Of a DNA stretch of 7,405 bases, positions 1 through 7,405 are shown piece by piece. Source of the DNA: a virus (lineage: Duplodnaviria > Heunggongvirae > Uroviricota > Caudoviricetes). Made by a program: the position numbers and the translations under genes. The stretch is taken from IMG/VR virus record IMGVR_UViG_2734482598_000002, one strand, 5' to 3'. Under the pieces are notes generated by a model. It saw only the letters and a program-made list of their open reading frames with translations. It was not told the origin of the DNA and made no database searches. The stretch's first letter is position 1. Each line of letters opens with the position of its first letter.

Positions 1-66
1 GAGAACCTTAAGGAAACAACATGTTGGGTGGAGCGGACAATCCAAATGGCGAATTACCGTCTTATA

Positions 67-393
67 TCACTGGCGCTGACACTTCATCACCTCCGGACGT
101 AAATCACCATCCTTTGGTGCATTCAGAAACGCGTTCAGTGTCCCCGGTGCATCAGTCGGTGCCACATCAATATCCCCGACACGGGTTGGCTGCCAGCCGT
201 TACAGTGAAGCGCAACCTCGTAATACCCCGGCTCAGCCTCAATCACATAAGCACCGTTATTGTCCGTCACGCAAGTGGCAACAACGTGTGCCACAACGGT
301 CGGACTGGTTCTTCTGGCCCGCAGTTCAATCGCACAATTTACGACAGGTTTACCCGCCCCATCTTTCAGTACACCTGAAATCTTTACTGCCAT
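67..393 (-). CDS. stf: Side tail fibre protein, N-terminal domain only (truncated Stf-like ORF, about 108 aa)
   Basis: Minus-strand ORF whose product from the internal Met (MAVKISGVLKDGAGKPV...) matches the N-terminus of lambda Stf as I recall it (MAVKISGVLKDGTGKPVQNC...). ATG at 393-391 preferred over the track's ATG at 435 because a terminator hairpin lies at 405-429 and homology begins at 393. The ORF stops at 69-67 (TGA) right after a conserved RPEV motif, where a full-length Stf would continue for several hundred residues. Confidence 0.6.
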   Translation of the reverse strand: MAVKISGVLKDGAGKPVVNCAIELRARRTSPTVVAHVVATCVTDNNGAYVIEAEPGYYEVALHCNGWQPTRVGDIDVAPTDAPGTLNAFLNAPKDGDLRPEVMKCQRQ

Positions 394-404
394 ATTCACC
401 CCAC

Positions 405-429
405 AAAAAGCCCGCCTGAACCAGCGGGC
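405..429 (-). terminator. Rho-independent terminator downstream of lom
   Basis: Minus-strand sequence GCCCGC-TGGTTCAG-GCGGGC followed by TTTTTGTGG: 6-bp GC-rich stem (plus 410-415 pairing with 424-429), 8-nt loop, T-tract at plus 405-409. Lies between the lom stop (459-457) and the stf start (393). Confidence 0.6.
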
Positions 430-456
430 AGTCATAACACTGTGTTACCTGGCTAA

Positions 457-1092
457 TCAGAACTTATAACCGACACCCACGATGAAACCGTCAGTGCGCC
501 AGTCACCACTGCCGGAACCTTCATAAGCAAGGTCAATGGCCACGGATTCGGTCGGGTTAAACTGCACGCCAGCCCCCCACGCCAGAGACGTGTTGCTGTG
601 GCGACCGTCATCACTTCCGGTCAGCACATCGTGCGTTTTCCCCTTGTTGNNNNNNNNNNNNNNNNNNNNNNNNNNNNNNNNNNNNNNNNNNNNNNNNNNN
701 NNNNNNNNNNNNNAGGTCGACACACGGCTGTAAGCCACGCCCGCCATCGCATACGCGCTGAACCATTCATTCACGCGCACAGACGGCCCCGCCATCACGC
801 TGAACCAGCGGTTACGCACGGAATCCTCATGCCAGCGGGTATCGCTGTAACGGGTCAGCTGGCGATTCTTGTCTCCTGCATAGCTGAATGACGTCACCAG
901 CCCCAGCGTATCCGTAAACTCATAACGGTATTTCACGTTAATGCCCTTCAGGTCATCGCTGCCTGGCATATCAGTATGGGTCTGAAGATACCCGGCGCTC
1001 AGCGTGGACTGATGTTCAGACGCCCATGCAGGCGCACCGGATACGGCCAGACAGATGGCTGCGGACAAAATGGCTGCACAAACTTTACGCAT
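457..1092 (-). CDS. lom: Lom outer-membrane protein (Ail/Lom/PagC family beta-barrel), 211 aa, interrupted by a 64-nt N run
   Basis: N-terminal signal peptide MRKVCAAILSAAICLAVSGAPAWA with an AxA cleavage motif; C-terminus ...AYEGSGSGDWRTDGFIVGVGYKF with terminal Phe typical of OMP barrels and matching lambda Lom as I recall it; conserved KGINVKYRYE block; SD GAGAGGT 5 nt upstream of the ATG at 1092; position immediately after J as in lambda. Frame is maintained across the N run at 650-713. Confidence 0.9.
   Translation of the reverse strand: MRKVCAAILSAAICLAVSGAPAWASEHQSTLSAGYLQTHTDMPGSDDLKGINVKYRYEFTDTLGLVTSFSYAGDKNRQLTRYSDTRWHEDSVRNRWFSVMAGPSVRVNEWFSAYAMAGVAYSRVSTXXXXXXXXXXXXXXXXXXXXXXNKGKTHDVLTGSDDGRHSNTSLAWGAGVQFNPTESVAIDLAYEGSGSGDWRTDGFIVGVGYKF
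650..713. other. Run of 64 undetermined bases (N), masked or assembly gap inside lom
   Basis: Directly visible in the sequence; the lom reading frame is the same on both sides of the run. Confidence 0.99.
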
Positions 1093-1113
1093 AATTACCT
1101 CTCGCTTTTCTGC

Positions 1114-1140
1114 AATAAAAAAGGCACCATTTCTGGTGCC
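1114..1140 (-). terminator. Rho-independent terminator between J and lom
   Basis: Minus-strand sequence GGCACCA-GAAA-TGGTGCC (7-bp perfect stem, 4-nt loop; plus 1123-1140) followed immediately by TTTTTTATT (plus 1114-1122). Located 20 nt after the J stop and upstream of the lom RBS. Confidence 0.7.
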
Positions 1141-1159
1141 CGTATCTGGGTTATAAAAT

Positions 1160-4100
1160 TCAGCTAATCGTGATGCCTGCAGTGGCTTTCTTCATCACCA
1201 CAACCAGCAAATCGCTGATACTTGCTGTGGGATACCAGCCATTTACCAGCCATGCCGATACAGAAAACTCCAGCGTCATGTGACCGTGACCGGCAGGCAT
1301 ATCAATAACACCCGTATATATCAGCGTATTATCCAGGGTCGTTCGGTTATAAATTTCAGCACCGTTTTTCTTCACTATCAGGCGGCATGACGAATAAATA
1401 TTGTTATTCTTCCGCTCATGTTTAGCACCGCGAAACGCCACCGCGGGAATAACAATTTGCCGATCAAACGGCTGATCGTCATAAACCCTGACGGTAATGG
1501 TCCCTGATGGCCACCTCTCCGGTGCCCGGGAGTCCCGTGGGAAAGGTTTGCCCACTGTTTTAACGAGATCGCCTTCAATCTGGTTCGCGGACAATTTTCC
1601 CAGAACCCGACAGTTCTTATTAATCGTGACGTTGTTGAGCGTCCCGGAGTTCGCGTTCACGTTACCGCTGATATCGGCATTTTTCGCCGTCAGCCGTCCG
1701 CCAGGTGTCAGGGAAAATGCCGGAGGATTACCGCCGCTGGTAATGGTCGGAGCCGTCAGGCATTTCAGGAACACGTCGTTCATGAATATCTGATCGCCCT
1801 GACCAACAAACATCGGCTTTGTGTTGCCATTCGCAGGATTAATCATCGCAATCCTGTCTGCCGCCAGCAGCACCTGACTCTGCATTCCTGCTGGCGTATT
1901 CTCAATACCGGCACCGATACCCGCAATATAAAGGCGTCCGTCCTTCATCTGTTGCAGCTTCACAGCCCACATGCTGTTCAGGTTATTATTTGTATCAACC
2001 TGAACTTTCTGTATCTGCTGGATTGCAGCACTCTGATTTTCCAGTTTTTTATTGACGGTTTGCGTGATTTCATTGCTGACATTCGTAATGGACGTCCTGA
2101 TTTCAGTCAGGTCCGGCGCAAGCTGACCGTTATCAATCTGCGTCCACAACTCCTTGCCGAGATGCGTTTTATTGATCAACCCTTTATAAAAATTCAGATA
2201 ACCTTCTGCATCATCGCTCGCCCGACCGATGGCCTCCACAAATGCCGATTTGCCAACGGTGTTCACACTGCGAACGTAAAAATAATAATCATGGCCCGGC
2301 CTGATATTGATACTGGCGGCTATCCAGTACAGCGCCGTGCCAAGATAGCGGGCGCTGGTTTCAACCTGCCTGATATCCGCAATCCGCTTTTCCGAAAACC
2401 AGAACTCAAACTGCACCGTCGGGTCATATACAGCCAGTTTCGGGACCGCCGTTATCTGAAAATACCCCGGTATCAGTTCAATAGTGACAGGCGCTGCCGG
2501 TGCCGCAATCCGGAACGATACCGACGCCGGATCGCCCTGCTGCCCCCGGGCATTTACCGCCCGGACTGTCAGACTGTAATTCCCCAGCGCCAGCTGCCTG
2601 AAGCGGTATGTGGTTTCCGTCGTCCTGGCTGTGCTGACCAGCCGCTCACTGCCGTCGTCCGCTGCCACGGTCAGGCGAAGCAGGAAGCTCACACCCTTCA
2701 CCACCTTCGGCGTGTCCCATCGCGCCAGCACCTGATATTCCCCGCTGTCTGCGGTGACTTCGGCGGTCAGATGCTGCACCGCTGGCGGCGTGACACCATT
2801 CACCGTGCCGCGCCGGTCACCGTCAAAGTGTGCCCCGTTATCCACGATGGCCTCTTTTTCCGGCACATGCTGCACGGCGGTGATGGCATACGTGCCGTCG
2901 TCGTTCTCACGGATACTCACGCAGCGGAACAGACGCTGGCGCAGCGTCGGCAGCTTCAGCCCCCACACGCTGTATTCTGCAACGCCGTCAGGAACCCGGC
3001 TCACTTTCACCTTCACGCCGTCGGTGACGGACTGGACCTCCACGCTGACCGGATTGCCACTTCCGTCAACCAGGCTTATCAGCGTGGTACCGGAGGACGG
3101 CAGCGTGATTTCACGGTCGAGCGTCAGCGTCCGGGTCTGGCTGTTCACCGCCAGTACGCGACCACCGGTGCTGATACCGGCATAATCATCATCGCAGATT
3201 TCAATGACATCACCCGGTACATGGCGAAGCCCTTCTGCGCCCACGCTGAAGTCCACGGTCTGCGTTTCCAGCAGTTCCGTTTTAATCAGCCACAGCCCGG
3301 CTCGGTGTGCCTGCCCCCGGCTGGTACAGCCAAAGGCATCCATCTTCGTGACATTACGACCGTAACGGGCAATGGCCTGCGTATCCTCCACAAGCTCTGT
3401 CGCCGTCTCCCAGCCGTTATCTGGGTCAATCCAGTTCACCTCAACGGCATTATGGCGGTCCTTCAGGGCGCTGAAGCTGTAGCGGAACGGCGCGCCATCG
3501 TCCGGCATCACCACATTACTGCGGTTATAGGTCCACACCTTATCCGACGGTCGGTCCTGCACGAACGTCAGCATCTGTCCGTTCCATACCGGCATACAGC
3601 GCATCGCCGAGCAGAAATCACTGAGAACATCCCACGCCTTACGCTGTGTGGTCAGGTAAGAGTTACAGGTGATGCGCGGCTCCGTGCCGCCAAATCCGTC
3701 CGTCACTGACTGGTCGCAGTACTGGCCGATGACATACAGCGCCCATTTGTCCACATCTGCCGCACCAAGACGTTTCCCCATGCCGTAGCGCGGATGAGTG
3801 AGCATGTCCCACAGACACCAGGCCATGTTGTTGCTGTATGCTGGCTTAAGCGTTCCGTCCCAGATACCGCTGTATTGCCGCGTCTGCGGGTTATAGTTCG
3901 ACGGCACCTGCAGAATGCGCCCGCGAAGATGATAATTGCGACTCACCTGCTGGTTACCGAACTGCTCTGAATCCACCTGCACGCCGACCAGCGCCGTGTT
4001 CGGGTAGCACTGTTTCACATCGATGATTTCGGTGTACGACGACCAGAGCGTTTTGTTCTGCAGCTGGTCTGTGGTGCTGTCCGGTGTCATCCTGCGCATC

Positions 4101-4639
4101 CGGATATTAAACGGGCGCGGCGGCAGGTTACCCACCACCACCGAGGCCAGATACTGCGAAGTGGTTTTGCCCTTAATGGTGATGTCTTTTTCCGTCACCC
4201 AGCCACCGTTACGCTGTATCTGAACCAGCAGGCGGACTTCCGACGGATTCCGGTCACCCTTTGAGGTGGTTTCCACCAGTGCCTGCACACCGAAGGTCAG
4301 GCGCAGACGGTCGATGTTTGCCGACGTGATGGTCCGGGTGATCGGCGTGTCATATTTCACTTCCGTACCCAGCACCGTCTCGGAGCCGGAGGATTCAAAA
4401 CCCTCCGGCGGTGTCTGCTCCTGCTCACCTGCACGGAACACCACCGTAACACCGGAAAAGTTTGTCTTCCCCTCGCTGTCCAGGACCGGCGTACCGTTCA
4501 GCAGCACGCTTTTTAATCCATCCACCGGACCGTCAACCGGCCCTTCGCTGATGGCATCAATCACACTCAGCAACTGCGTGGATTTCAGGTTGTCCTTCGC
4601 TTCGCGCGGGGTATGCCCCTTACTGCTGCCTTTACCCAT
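1160..4639 (-). CDS. J: Tail tip / central tail fibre host-specificity protein J, 1159 aa
   Basis: Single long minus-strand ORF. N-terminus [34 protein letters not shown]... and most of the first 800 residues are near-colinear with lambda J as I recall it. SD GAGGA immediately upstream of the ATG at 4639; stop TGA at 1162-1160. Size and position (after I, before lom) match lambda gene order. Confidence 0.95.
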
Positions 4640-4699: not shown

Positions 4700-5341
4700 T
4701 CAGCGACCAATCACCACAACCTGACCACCATCCCCTTCGTCTGCCGTGCTGATCTCCTGAGAAACCACACGTGACCCCACGCGCATTTCACCGTACAGAA
4801 CGGGCAGAACATTGCCCTGGGCAACCATGTTATCCAGTGACGAGAAATACGTGTTCTGCTTACCGTTATCCGTTGTCTGTGTACGGGGAGTTCTGGCTTT
4901 CGGTGCCAGCATCTGTGCAACACCGCCAAGCGTCATACTGGCACCGAGAGAAAACAGCAGATTACTCGCCATAATTCCTACCCCCGGCATCCATATAGCA
5001 ACCGCCATAACAGCCGCCCCCAGCACCGCCTGAAACACACCGCCACTTTTAGCTCCCACCAGACGCGGTACTATGTGGATCACTGCACCATTTGCCAGCG
5101 GCTCATTAAGACGGGCAGACAATTCGGTTTCACCTGCATCACGCCCGGCAATGCGCACCTGATACCAGCCGTCACTCAGTTTCTGACGAAACGCCGGGAG
5201 CTGTGTGGCCAGTGCCCGGATGGCTTCAGCCCCCGTTTTCACACGAAGGTCGATGCGGCGACCAAATCGTTGTAAATCCCCGTAAAGGCAGATGCGCGCC
5301 ATGCCCGGTGACGCCAGAGGGAGTGTGTGCGTCGCTGCCAT
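4700..5341 (-). CDS. I: Tail tip assembly protein I, 213 aa
   Basis: Minus-strand ORF. N-terminus MAATHTLPLASPGMARICLYGDLQRFGRRIDLRVKTGAEAIRALATQLPAFRQKLSDGWYQVRIAGRD and C-terminus ...KARTPRTQTTDNGKQNTYFSSLDNMVAQGNVLPVLYGEMRVGSRVVSQEISTADEGDGGQVVVIGR match lambda gpI as I recall it; the middle hydrophobic segment differs. Start could alternatively be the internal ATG at 5302. Stop TGA at 4702-4700. Confidence 0.9.
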   Translation of the reverse strand: MAATHTLPLASPGMARICLYGDLQRFGRRIDLRVKTGAEAIRALATQLPAFRQKLSDGWYQVRIAGRDAGETELSARLNEPLANGAVIHIVPRLVGAKSGGVFQAVLGAAVMAVAIWMPGVGIMASNLLFSLGASMTLGGVAQMLAPKARTPRTQTTDNGKQNTYFSSLDNMVAQGNVLPVLYGEMRVGSRVVSQEISTADEGDGGQVVVIGR

Positions 5342-5948
5342 TTGTCGGTGTACCTCTCTCGTTTGCTCAGTTGTTCAGGAATATGGTGCAGCAGCCCGCC
5401 GTCACCGCAGTAAATGGCGGCATGATTCGGCACCGATGAACCAAAACAGCACAGCAGCACATCGCCCGGCTGTGCCTCTGTCAGTGCGACACGGTAAAAA
5501 CCCGTCACCTCCATATTGTCAAGATAGAGATTCTGACCGTTACGCCACCAGTCATCCCCGCGATGAAAATCCGGCATCTCAATCCCTGCCAGATGATAAG
5601 CATCCCGGAACAGCGTGTAACAGTCCGTCACCCCGTGCTCAAAGCNNNNNNNNNNNNNNNNNNNNNNNNNNNNNNNNNNNNNNNNNNNNNNNNNNNNNNN
5701 NNNNNNNNNNNNNNNNNNNNNNNNNNNNNNNNNNNNNNNNNNNNNNNNNNNNNNNNNNNNNNNNNNNNNNNNNNNNNNNNNNNNNNNNNNNNNNNNNNNN
5801 NNNNNNNNNNNNNNNNNNNNNNNNNNNNNNNNNNNNNNNNNNNNNNNNNNNNNNNNNNTCCCTCCGGCGTTCTTACCACGAAGCCACACGACTCCGCTGG
5901 CGCACATCGCCGGGCGTGCGCCAGAATCGCTGATTCTGTCTGTGTCAT
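5239..5948 (-). CDS. K: Tail tip assembly protein K (JAB/MPN N-terminal motif plus NlpC/P60-like C-terminal domain); frame discontinuity across a 213-nt N run
   Basis: ATG at 5948-5946, 4 nt after the L stop, encodes MTQTESAILAHARRCAPAESCGFVVRTPEG, a JAB/MPN-like start typical of lambda K. After the N run a different frame encodes ...DCYTLFRDAYHLAGIEMPDF...SSVPNHAAIYCGDGGLLHH..., with Cys/His/His spacing typical of NlpC/P60 peptidases, ending at TGA 5241-5239. The two halves are in different frames (5948 and 5907 differ by 41 nt), so the gene is either frameshifted inside the masked region or the N run has an inexact length. Confidence 0.7.
5646..5858. other. Run of 213 undetermined bases (N), masked or assembly gap inside K
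   Basis: Directly visible in the sequence. Confidence 0.99.
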
Positions 5949-5952
5949 GGAT

Positions 5953-6651
5953 TTACTGAGAAAGTTTATTGATGGAAAGGAAACCGCCGAAATTACCGGT
6001 ATTGTTGCGCAACTCACACCCGCGCATACACTTGCTGCATTTGTCCTTCCGGATATCCGTCGTTGGTTTGTCGAACTCGTCAGCCACTGCCCTGCCCGTG
6101 TAACCACACTCATCAGAACGGTAAGTCCACATACAGGTATTCGCCAGCATGATACGCCCCGGGAAAACCGCGCCATCCGTCTCCGTTGGTGTGGCCAGCA
6201 CAAAAGAGGCACTGACCGCGCTCAGTTCGCTGCACTGCTCGATGCGCCAGCGGCTGATCACCTCCTGTTCCGGATCGGCGTCGCTGTTTCCGTTGACGAA
6301 GTTCACCGCATCCAGAAAACGGGCGTAAACCTTACGCCTGACCACCGTTCCGCCGACCAGACTCTGCAGGTCTTCCGCCATCCCCGTGACCATGCCGTGC
6401 AGGTTAGAAACCGTCAGTGTCGGACGGGCAGCACTGCCCTTGCCGTTCAGTTCAAATCCCGTCCCCTGAATGGGGTATGCCTGATACTGCCGCCCCTGCC
6501 AGGTAACCGGCTCACCTTTTTCGTTCTGCTCATTACAGAAAAAATAACGTTCACCACCGACCTCTGTCAGATCGATTTCCCAGAGCACCACCTGGGCTGA
6601 CTGAGTGAGGCGTGTCGTCTCATGATGTGTTTCCTGTGGAATATCCTGCAT
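5953..6651 (-). CDS. L: Minor tail protein L (tail tip complex; Cys-rich C-terminus consistent with an Fe-S cluster site), 232 aa
   Basis: Minus-strand ORF of 232 aa, the same length as lambda gpL, immediately after M. SD GAGG in the 9-nt M-L spacer. C-terminal cysteines (...CMWTYRSDECGYTG...CSKCMRGCE...) fit the reported iron-sulfur cluster of gpL. Confidence 0.9.
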   Translation of the reverse strand: MQDIPQETHHETTRLTQSAQVVLWEIDLTEVGGERYFFCNEQNEKGEPVTWQGRQYQAYPIQGTGFELNGKGSAARPTLTVSNLHGMVTGMAEDLQSLVGGTVVRRKVYARFLDAVNFVNGNSDADPEQEVISRWRIEQCSELSAVSASFVLATPTETDGAVFPGRIMLANTCMWTYRSDECGYTGRAVADEFDKPTTDIRKDKCSKCMRGCELRNNTGNFGGFLSINKLSQ

Positions 6652-6660
6652 CAGAGCCTC

Positions 6661-6990
6661 CTATGCCACGACCTGTTCAAAATCTGCCGTTATGGTTACC
6701 CACAACGCCCCCACGCTTGCCGACCATTTACGACAAACCACCCTGATCGGCTTCCAGTCATAAGGTGGCGTCCACTGAAATGCGCGGACGCCACCGTGCC
6801 GTTCCAGAAAGGCTTTTAAAGATGGGTGTTCACATTTACGAACACGTATCGTCACGCTGTAAGTCGACAACTGGTTATTCAGTCCCGCCGCACGACGCTG
6901 TTCATAACCATCGCCCAGCTTCACTGTCACCACTTTCGGCTCTGATACCACATTCATATCCGGGCGCACTTTCCAGTGAAACGTCTCCAT
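6661..6990 (-). CDS. M: Minor tail protein M, 109 aa
   Basis: 109-aa minus-strand ORF, METFHWKVRPDMNVVSEPKVV...FLERHGGVRAFQWTPPYDWKPIRVVCRKWSA...FEQVVA, same length and similar to lambda gpM as I recall it (MKTFRWKVKPGMDV...EFEQVVN). Its ATG overlaps the upstream stop by 1 nt (TAATG). Confidence 0.9.
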   Translation of the reverse strand: METFHWKVRPDMNVVSEPKVVTVKLGDGYEQRRAAGLNNQLSTYSVTIRVRKCEHPSLKAFLERHGGVRAFQWTPPYDWKPIRVVCRKWSASVGALWVTITADFEQVVA

Positions 6991-7405
6991 TACCGGTATG
7001 CTCCACTTAACCGGCCACCATCACGGGCCTGCTGTTGCATAAAGTCCGCGGCCGCTTTTTTCCCGAGGTCATAAACCACCTTCAGGGCAGCCGGACCTAT
7101 CTGCCCGTTCGTGCCATCGTTATTGATCTCAATGTTGTACTGCGGGGCAAACATCACCATGCCTGAACCACCAGTATCCGCCACACCCCCCAGCTTACCA
7201 TCAGCACCGCGACGCAGTGGCAGAATGGCTTCAGGTCCCGCTTCCCCCATCACACCCGCGCCTTTTGCAAAAGCAAAAAACGTCGGACGGTTAACCACCG
7301 TGCCACTGTAGCGACTCAAATCAGCAGACTGAGGTAGCCTGAGTTTAACGGACACTCCTTCCTGAAATAGAATGGCATCAGAAGGAGCTAATAATGAGCA
7401 GAAAA
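6990..7405 (-). CDS. H: Tail tape-measure protein H, C-terminal fragment (partial; 5' end lies beyond the right edge)
   Basis: Minus-strand frame is open from the window edge (7405) to TAA at 6992-6990 with no in-frame stop between 7356 and 7405, so the track's start at 7355 (a GTG) is not the true start. Gly/Ala-rich C-terminal sequence and position immediately upstream of M match the lambda H-M junction. Confidence 0.75.
   Translation of the reverse strand, partial: FCSLLAPSDAILFQEGVSVKLRLPQSADLSRYSGTVVNRPTFFAFAKGAGVMGEAGPEAILPLRRGADGKLGGVADTGGSGMVMFAPQYNIEINNDGTNGQIGPAALKVVYDLGKKAAADFMQQQARDGGRLSGAYR

Follow-up and report, generated by a model that had tools for sequence, protein, structure and literature searches.

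The window, by which we mean the whole 7,405-nucleotide stretch of DNA analysed here, contains an intact J gene of the lambda tail-tip type, with its neighbors in the order H-M-L-K-I-J-lom-stf that is also the gene context of lambda gpJ (Table 1). Both outer genes are damaged by insertion sequences. An IS600 copy interrupts H and leaves only its last ~113 codons beside M, a fragment that was aligned with residues 788-850 of lambda H. At the other end, stf is truncated by an IS66-family element, which matches window positions 1-85, and homology to related prophages ends at position ~82. The IS600/H junction was also found in Shigella chromosomes L009-L011. Shigella chromosomes with an identical J carry the Q antiterminator gene, then IS600, then H'-M-L-K-I-J, with none of the genes for lysis, terminase, the head, or the major tail proteins in between, and the window and these chromosomes are 99.6-99.8% identical over the locus. 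The prophage around J is a remnant: its head genes and most of its tail genes are missing, and it cannot build a tail or a virion alone. In phage 21 a terminator is annotated where this J is followed by the hairpin, and sit iron-transporter genes lie downstream of the tail-fibre genes, as they also do in Shigella chromosomes with this J, there beyond intervening IS copies. A 585-aa ORF antisense to J (1952-3709) had no family match and was taken as a shadow of the J frame.

Table 1. Coordinates and supporting evidence for the features of the window, including the domains of J
Feature	Position	Strand	Basis or remark
J gene (tail tip / central fibre protein)	1160..4639	-	ORF; 1159 codons + stop, intact
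J aa 1-813, hub and two FNIII/Ig domains	2201..4639	-	Lambda / phage 21 type
J aa ~809-889, alpha-helical shaft (AHS)	1973..2215	-	Phage-21 type; 28 aa longer than lambda AHS
J aa 836-866, containing 21 + 7 = 28 residues absent from lambda J	2042..2134	-	MAFFT and BLASTP gaps
J aa ~890-1010, beta-sheet prism (central straight fibre)	1610..1972	-	PF09327; names after Ge et al. 2024
J aa 941-1002, conserved island at prism base	1634..1819	-	83-96% nt identity, five references
J aa 1011-1159, Ig-like receptor-binding domain, '1A2 / PPompW' allele class	1163..1609	-	Identities, AF2, fold matches
J aa 1075-1080 (ERKNNN), hypervariable loop, predicted receptor-contact loop L2	1400..1417	-	Variability and model
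Terminator-like hairpin directly after J stop codon	1122..1141	-	8-bp stem, then T-run
lom (Ail/Lom outer-membrane protein), partly N-masked	457..1092	-	PF06316
stf', N-terminal ~108 codons of side tail fibre gene, truncated	67..393	-	PF08400, only positions 1-104 of 134
I, K (N-masked), L, M, and last ~113 codons of tape-measure gene H	4700..7330	-	ORFs, Pfam, H alignment
End of IS600 (IS3 family) copy interrupting H	7331..7405	+	100% match to annotated IS600 transposase loci

Domain organization and mosaic structure of J

The J product has the parts of a lambda-type gpJ: hub domains, two FNIII/Ig domains followed by the fibre, a C-terminal Ig-like domain, and a position within the tail-tip module. 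From the N-terminus, Pfam models matched FNIII-A_GpJ (PF24801) at aa 86-207, Phage-tail_3 (PF13550) at 330-498, Ig_J (PF24421) at 611-714, Ig_J_second (PF24489) at 716-818, Phage_Tail_Tip (PF09327) at 872-1000, and Ig_GpJ_C (PF12421) at 1030-1159 (E = 3e-36), while no Pfam model matched aa 819-871. In lambda gpJ (UniProt P03749; PDB 8IYK, 8XCG, 8XCI-8XCK), which has the same architecture, the proximal residues 1-807 have been resolved inside the tail tip complex by cryo-EM (PMC12617516), and the published map places the AHS at residues 809-861, followed by the CSF and by an RBD with loops L1-L4 (PMC11101478). By analogy with this map, the central segment in which J diverges from lambda corresponds to the alpha-helical shaft and the upper beta-prism.

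J is 82% identical to lambda J (1132 aa) overall by BLASTP, and its segments differ widely, with 95.8% identity at aa 1-813, 38.6% at aa 814-940, 85.7% at aa 941-1010, and 39.3% at aa 1011-1159. Residue 814 starts at window position 2200, and positions 1163-2200 encode aa 814-1159. The original prediction had placed a close likeness to lambda in the first ~800 residues and a departure near residue 814; both are borne out, with the best-fitting breakpoint after codon ~831. The extra length of J (1159 versus 1132 aa) had been assigned to the central segment, and that is where both MAFFT and BLASTP put it: 28 aa are gained at aa 836-866 and one is lost near the C-terminus, for a net gain of 27. 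Nucleotide identity to lambda is 93.9% across gene nt 1-2439 versus 56.7% across nt 3031-3477, a contrast much larger than chance would give (Fisher p = 2e-81). Maximum chi-square analysis gave best-fitting breakpoints against lambda after codons ~831 and ~1002, with the conserved island beginning at ~941, while similarity to phage 21 stops near codon ~1023 and similarity to PPompW starts near codon ~738. Given these segment identities and the breakpoints near codons ~738, ~831, and ~1023, the mosaic junction proposed within J is real.

The intact gene is made of modules of different parentage. Over aa 1-813, J is about as close to phage 21 (95.4% aa identity) as to lambda, and just 74.9% identical to PPompW. 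Its shaft is unrelated to that of lambda at the DNA level (11-45% nt identity) and 80-98% identical to those of phage 21 and PPompW by 60-nt sliding identity. The upper beta-prism is likewise of the phage-21/PPompW type (53-60% to lambda), and the lower prism is conserved across all references; the same 60-nt sliding measure gave the range listed in Table 1 for aa 941-1002 in all five. The J of phage 21 (OL657228, annotated as central tail fibre) is collinear with this J at ~93% nt identity from codon 1 to codon ~1023, the long shaft included. At the conserved stretch, Brödel et al. put foreign C-termini on gpJ, at lambda aa 964 (PMC11338833). We consider aa 941-1002 a likely recombination joint ahead of the receptor-binding domain.

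Four modules can be distinguished. The first, aa 1-813, of lambda/phage-21 type, comprises the hub and FNIII domains, which dock into the tail tip. The second, aa ~814-940, forms the phage-21-type shaft and upper beta-prism. The third, the prism base at aa 941-1002, is conserved in all relatives and would serve as a natural crossover point. The fourth, aa ~1011-1159, is the Ig-like receptor-binding domain, of the class found in the E. coli O157 prophage PPompW and in an engineered gpJ, '1A2'.

Allele class of the receptor-binding domain

The comparisons made here establish the domain assignments of J and the allele class of its receptor-binding domain. Across aa 1011-1159, identity was 94.6% to vB_EcoS-640R1, 92.6% to PPompW, 91.9% to PhiR55_1, and 63% to phage 21. 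Measured over the last 150 aa, vB_EcoS-640R1, PPompW, and a large number of long-tailed Stx phages share 92-95% identity with J, whereas phage 21 shares 63% and lambda 40%. No gaps were needed against PPompW, 640R1, or PhiR55_1, so the four variable loops have equal lengths in all of them. By contrast, one variable loop of phage 21 is 4 aa shorter and another is 5 aa longer, the longer one being the loop at aa 1075-1080, where A8 also has a 5-aa insertion. The domain therefore lies outside the LamB-specific lambda class, at 39.3% identity (40% by tblastn), and outside the phage 21/A8 class, given 63% identity, two indels, and DNA similarity that ends at codon ~1023. It had been predicted that the last ~150 residues would be homologous to the lambda domain yet strongly diverged, and this is what was found: PF12421 is recognizable at aa 1030-1159, and the 39-40% identity is far below the 90% that would have spoken for a lambda-like domain.

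Within its own class, J differs from the 1A2/PPompW domain at 11 of 149 residues (P1032A, R1070S, R1076K, K1077E, N1078H, N1079T, N1080D, K1090R, T1101A, T1109S, and G1134N). Five of these fall in the ERKNNN loop, and R1070S is found shortly ahead of it; others are in or adjoin the other variable loops. The ERKNNN loop is the most variable stretch inside the class, reading ERENND in 640R1 and EREHTD in PhiR55_1 with the rest of the domain more than 90% identical, and it sits between two strands of the AF2 model. It probably corresponds to L2; the matching of loops to L1-L4 draws on the monomer model and on the way loops alternate in a beta-sandwich. A scan of species-representative genomes found the exact DNA of this loop in S. 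flexneri SFBU1023 (identity 97.3%) and E. coli ECMA0423 (92.1%).

The AF2 monomer model of aa 800-1159 predicts a continuous helix at aa 842-887 and a receptor-binding domain with pLDDT of 80-96. The prism was modelled poorly (pLDDT under 50 at aa ~883-972), which is no surprise for an intertwined trimer, so we relied on the shaft helix and the receptor-binding domain alone. The best four Foldseek matches to the model (9wca, 8xck, 8xcj, and 9wcb) were all gpJ structures, and a PDB sequence search returned A8 gpJ713 (9wca/9wcb; E = 1.5e-127) and lambda gpJ713 (8xcj/8xck; E = 1.7e-105). A8, captured closed (9wca) and open with OmpC G17 of E. coli EDL933 bound (9wcb), is the solved structure that this J resembles most in both sequence and fold, and it shows the OmpC binding mode for this type of tip. 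Its domain is nevertheless phage-21-like, at 81% identity to phage 21 and ~65% to this J, with different loop lengths.

PhiR55_1 (PV340571), vB_EcoS-640R1 (ON470612), and PhiR46_1 carry the mosaic over its full length, with 93-95% identity from one end to the other; PhiR55_1 and vB_EcoS-640R1, at ~95% aa identity, match J even in length (1159 aa). Most of their point differences from this J fall in the predicted L2 loop or near aa 721-740 and aa 811-835. Unlike the remnant in the window, these are isolated temperate phages, one with a complete genome record; the PhiR phage paper contains no receptor data. NCBI/RefSeq lists the exact J protein under the name Shigella host specificity protein J, and at least 999 contigs named Shigella carry it. 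A comparison of the last 1041 nt of J with the complete E. coli collection gave 3157 matching records at 90-95% identity, and a match covering at least 80% of that stretch was present in 2797 of 5426 complete genomes.

Candidate receptors and the present role of J

The link to a receptor comes through 1A2, a chimera whose tail is the J C-terminus of the O157 prophage PPompW and whose domain makes lambda particles use OmpC in place of LamB (Brödel et al. 2024, Nature 632:877; PMC11338833). DNA delivery by 1A2 particles into a lamB/ompC double deletion strain requires a suitable supplied OmpC, and with the 1A2 gpJ, EDL933 OmpC is functional as a receptor while K-12 OmpC is not (PMC11338833). We reconstructed the 1A2 sequence from the machine-read supplement PDF of that paper, which contains frame errors. 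Plain tblastn on this text gave frame-shifted fragments and served as a lead only, and assigning the 1A2 and A8 tails to classes by DNA was abandoned, 1A2 having only ~67% DNA identity to its closest protein relatives. Because the DNA comparison gives no usable class, a frame-error-tolerant protein-to-DNA alignment was used, in which the PPompW domain and the 1A2 tail agree in 137 of the 142 codons that could be read; the other five fall at three sites that resemble text-recognition damage, one of them reading as a stop codon. This J has an identical C-terminal tail and the same conserved grafting joint, although the N-terminal two thirds of the PPompW J are only 75% identical to it.

Since the PPompW-class domain matches the OmpC-using 1A2 graft, OmpC rather than LamB is the likeliest receptor of the J domain, judging from the allele match. 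OmpC use was shown for 1A2 itself, and J is linked to it by sequence across 11 substitutions, six of which lie in or beside the predicted tip loop; by analogy, the J allele would probably keep the specificity of 1A2. Our main reading, to which we give a probability of roughly 0.7, is that J is a mosaic of modules whose tip, if built into a tail, would most likely dock on OmpC. In a lambdoid tail, the four bottom loops of the J trimer would then dock onto the trimeric porin OmpC instead of LamB, and binding would set off the relay of prism twist and shaft flip described for lambda. The original prediction that this prophage probably recognizes another outer-membrane receptor, or a different LamB variant, is supported as regards the domain: a different receptor is suggested by ~93% identity to the OmpC-directing 1A2 allele, but recognition by the prophage itself was overstated, as the remnant cannot assemble a tail alone.

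It is in fact rather probable that J has no current function here, its ORF being intact but left behind in a remnant, where recent clonal descent and not selection has preserved it, and that it counts solely as raw material for recombination with incoming lambdoid phages. The main reading, which covers what J would do if used, does not conflict with this one. The interrupted H, the truncated stf, the modules missing from the Shigella chromosomes, and the near-identity of the locus between those chromosomes and the window all favor it. Against it stands a 3.5-kb ORF that has acquired neither stops nor frameshifts across at least 999 contigs. Shigella sonnei is a recent clone, and because the carriers are named as that species, the integrity of the ORF is weak counter-evidence. 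The realistic present role of J may be that of a relic with which an incoming lambdoid phage could recombine.

Receptor choice is labile across the gpJ family. Phage 21 natively uses LamB, and a single J mutation adds OmpC use (PMC11336670); A8 is an OmpC user despite being 81% identical to phage 21 in the receptor-binding domain. With 11 differences from 1A2/PPompW, many in variable loops, the OmpC variant that J prefers, or even the porin it uses, could differ from that of 1A2. We consider it doubtful, though worth stating, that this Shigella-borne allele has a receptor range beyond 1A2 and A8, tuned by its ERKNNN loop and ten or so further tip substitutions to a Shigella/EIEC OmpC variant or to a second porin. 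If that were true, the stranded J would offer an existing module with which lambda-type particles could be retargeted to Shigella, and would be a natural case of one loop finely tuning receptor use.

The proposal that the domain recognizes another outer-membrane protein, such as OmpF or a different porin, or that its ERKNNN loop limits it to an OmpC variant outside the 1A2 range, appears unlikely. Six of the 11 differences do cluster in or just before one hypervariable loop, natural OmpC variants are already told apart by 1A2 and A8, and OmpF can be reached by evolved lambda and phage 21. However, 640R1 and PhiR55_1 vary in the same loop against an otherwise conserved domain, which looks like fine-tuning within one receptor, and there is no direct evidence for a different one. 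Continued use of LamB, possibly a Shigella-type variant, with the divergence due to drift or to an arms race over that one receptor, is improbable even though phage 21 natively uses LamB, the lambda domain shares the fold, and single mutations shift such domains between LamB and OmpC, because the nearest tested allele, 1A2, works in delta-lamB and needs OmpC, while identity to both LamB users is far lower (63% and 39%).

J belongs to the lambda family of tail-tip genes, is ordinary and already catalogued, and lies in a Shigella-type prophage that has decayed. Its arrangement is not new; that lambdoid phages swap the C-terminus of J as a module is textbook knowledge. As a discovery it matters little, given that the allele class has been exploited experimentally, the structure of a related OmpC-binding tip is solved, and the exact protein is in RefSeq. 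It is useful as a worked example, in which breakpoints coincide with the borders of structural domains, namely where FNIII-2 ends and at the prism base, and the conserved prism base is a natural crossover site at the same place where engineers made their grafts. It also illustrates how modules survive in dead prophages, which keep intact receptor-binding modules that incoming phages could pick up.

Mosaic structure of the J gene

The largest ORF in the window (1160–4639, minus strand) encodes a 1159-aa protein in which Pfam recovered the complete lambda gpJ architecture, as listed in the table below. A tail-tip module of the usual kind surrounds it, likewise on the minus strand, with H' (truncated tape-measure gene), M, L, K, and I upstream, and lom and stf' (truncated side tail fibre gene) downstream. 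Terminator-like hairpins with T-runs were found on the minus strand at 1122–1141, directly 3' of J, and at 410–429, after lom; phage 21 likewise has a terminator annotated after J. A plus-strand ORF of 585 aa at 1952–3709, antisense to J, matched nothing in Pfam; it is best explained as a shadow of the GC-rich coding region.

Domains of the window J (Pfam) and segment identities to lambda J (six-sequence alignment)
Feature	J residues (aa)	Identity to lambda J
FNIII-A_GpJ	86–207	
Phage-tail_3	330–498	
Ig_J	611–714	
Ig_J_second	716–818	
Phage_Tail_Tip	872–1000	
Ig_GpJ_C, 'C-terminal receptor binding domain'	1030–1159	
Segment	1–813	95.8%
Segment	814–940	38.6%
Segment	941–1010	85.7%
Segment	1011–1159	39.3%

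Overall identity to lambda J (NC_001416, 1132 aa) was 82% by BLASTP. The original prediction described a J that tracks lambda for about 800 residues, departs from it near residue 814 (window position 2200 is the first nucleotide of this residue, and 1163–2200 is exactly aa 814–1159), is longer than lambda's, and ends in a strongly diverged domain of about 150 aa, and this description was confirmed in every element. The length difference arises because 28 residues (21 + 7) at aa 836–866 have no counterpart in lambda J, while lambda has one additional residue near the C-terminus. In nucleotide terms, the gene was 93.9% identical to lambda over nt 1–2439 and 56.7% over nt 3031–3477 (Fisher p = 2e-81).

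The mosaic junction implied within J was located by sliding-window identity and a maximum chi-square scan. Similarity to lambda stops after codon ~831, returns at ~941, and stops again after ~1002; similarity to phage 21 stops after ~1023; and PPompW, an E. coli O157 prophage, is only ~74% identical up to codon ~738, then ~92% up to the end. J thus resembles lambda and phage 21 over its first two thirds and phage 21 and PPompW in its middle, and its tip resembles PPompW and not phage 21. In a megablast search of phage genomes, gene nt 1–3100 were matched at ~93% by phage 21 and many lambda-like phages, while end-to-end matches were limited to a few (PhiR55_1, vB_EcoS-640R1, PhiR46_1, and 500465-3). 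The DNA of aa 721–740 (window ~2420–2479) and aa 811–835 (~2135–2209) was only 73–88% identical to all five reference J genes. For one patch, the window has its own sequence where vB_EcoS-640R1, PPompW, and PhiR55_1 share YLDFFKGEIGKTHLAQELW, and an 18-residue stretch at aa 718–735 is a further divergent example. Both patches are lineage-specific micro-mosaics.

Cryo-EM has resolved the proximal gpJ residues 1–807 within the lambda tail tip complex (PMC12617516), and on the lambda domain map of Ge et al. (PMC11101478), which places the alpha-helical shaft at residues 809–861, the first junction therefore falls where FNIII-2 ends and the shaft starts, the 28 additional residues giving a longer shaft. 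An AF2 model of aa 800–1159 predicted a single continuous helix at aa 842–887, with hydrophobic periodicity near 3.6 residues (a value reached by 118 of 5000 shuffles), as would be expected of an amphipathic helix. Once lambda has bound its receptor, the shaft flips and is partly refolded (Ge et al., PMC11101478). The conserved island at aa 941–1002 is the prism base, and foreign C-termini were grafted in this same stretch, at lambda residue 964, by Brödel et al. (PMC11338833); the island may be a natural crossover site, with which the graft choice is consistent.

Relatives and candidate receptor of the tip

Over the last 150 aa, identity was 92–95% to the J proteins of vB_EcoS-640R1, of PPompW prophages, and of many long-tailed Stx1a/Stx2a phages, compared to ~60–63% for phage 21 and its relatives and ~40% for lambda, far short of the 90% at which the original prediction would have failed. 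The top PDB sequence match was 'A8 gpJ 713' (9wca/9wcb, E = 1.5e-127), with lambda gpJ713 ranking below. The C-terminal domain was modelled confidently (pLDDT 80–96), and its top four Foldseek matches were all gpJ structures (9wca, 8xck, 8xcj, and 9wcb), of which 9wcb is A8 gpJ in complex with OmpC of E. coli EDL933.

Brödel et al. (Nature 2024, PMC11338833) fused lambda J to C-termini from natural gpJ variants. [quoted passage not shown] Because the 1A2 gene came from machine-read supplement text with frame errors (PMC11338833), and its tail has only ~67% DNA identity to natural J genes, it was aligned to proteins with frame shifts tolerated. Of its 142 readable codons, 137 agreed with the PPompW domain and 127 with that of the window. 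The five disagreements with PPompW are confined to three sites, one of them read as a stop codon, where text recognition appears to have damaged the sequence. Since 1A2 belongs to the PPompW class, the window tip is closely related (~93%) to an allele with demonstrated OmpC specificity, which supports the proposal of a receptor other than lambda's. Isolated PhiR phages whose tips fall in this class had E. coli C or ECOR13 as propagation host, and K-12 was the host of none of those listed; anecdotally, this agrees with the failure of 1A2 to recognise K-12 OmpC.

Phage 21 uses LamB, and a single J mutation confers OmpC use (PMC11336670), yet OmpC is the receptor of A8, whose domain shares 81% identity with that of phage 21 and is of its type; belonging to a class at 60–80% identity is therefore insufficient to fix the receptor. 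At ~93% such a relationship is more informative, and we are moderately sure that the window tip uses OmpC, with a probability of about 0.7. Use of a different porin, or of a more restricted set of OmpC variants, is unlikely. The tip differs from PPompW/1A2 at 11 positions (P1032A, R1070S, R1076K, K1077E, N1078H, N1079T, N1080D, K1090R, T1101A, T1109S, and G1134N) that are not randomly placed: five lie in the loop at aa 1075–1080, R1070S immediately before it, and others in or beside the remaining variable loops. In the AF2 model, the variable stretches (aa 1032–1045, 1075–1080, 1102–1105, and 1132–1139) alternate with conserved loops, as would the bottom loops of a beta-sandwich, and we infer only that they may correspond to L1–L4, the receptor-contact loops of the lambda domain. 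LamB use is improbable given the low identity to the tips of lambda and phage 21, even though the latter, a LamB user, is one mutation from OmpC use (PMC11336670).

A stranded J in a prophage remnant

An IS600 (IS3 family) end at window 7331–7405 adjoins the last ~113 codons of H (6993–7330), which is thus interrupted; the fragment aligns with lambda H residues 788–850. An IS66-family element end occupies 1–81 and cuts stf (67–393) after ~108 codons, so that stf matches only positions 1–104 of 134 in PF08400. N runs at 650–713 and 5646–5858 obscure, respectively, a portion of lom and the bulk of gene K. Three Shigella-type chromosomes that encode the identical J protein align collinearly with the window at 99.6–99.8% identity, with one nucleotide different in J. 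Along these chromosomes the Q antiterminator gene is followed by IS600, then by H'-M-L-K-I-J-lom-stf', several IS copies, and finally the sitABCD operon. The far side of IS600 is the Q antiterminator region (4298–7616 in L009, one of the three), and no lysis, terminase, head, or major tail genes were found at the locus in these chromosomes. At lom, window 851–910 has ~20 clustered substitutions and small indels against the otherwise near-identical L009–L011, which looks like a short exchange with another lom/ail copy.

In these chromosomes the tail-fibre genes are followed, past IS copies, by the sitABCD-type metal ABC transporter operon (L009:19511–22960). In phage 21, sit genes are also downstream of the tail-fibre genes, soon after stf (L004:6748–7453). 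This arrangement is consistent with a phage-21-like ancestor and suggests a sit-carrying prophage of that type as the source of the remnant.

The feature is already on record: a public entry identical over all 1159 aa, 'MULTISPECIES: host specificity protein J [Shigella]', occurs on at least 999 contigs, 4.8–4.9 Mb chromosomes among them, and the full-length mosaic is also carried by isolated phages. In the complete E. coli collection, the last 1041 nt of J had nine records at ≥99% identity and 3157 at 90–95%, with a match spanning at least 80% of this length in 2797 of 5426 genomes.

The original prediction is thus supported and made more precise: OmpC is the probable receptor, the junctions within J coincide with domain boundaries, and J is an intact but stranded module of a dead prophage, the remnant that hosts it.
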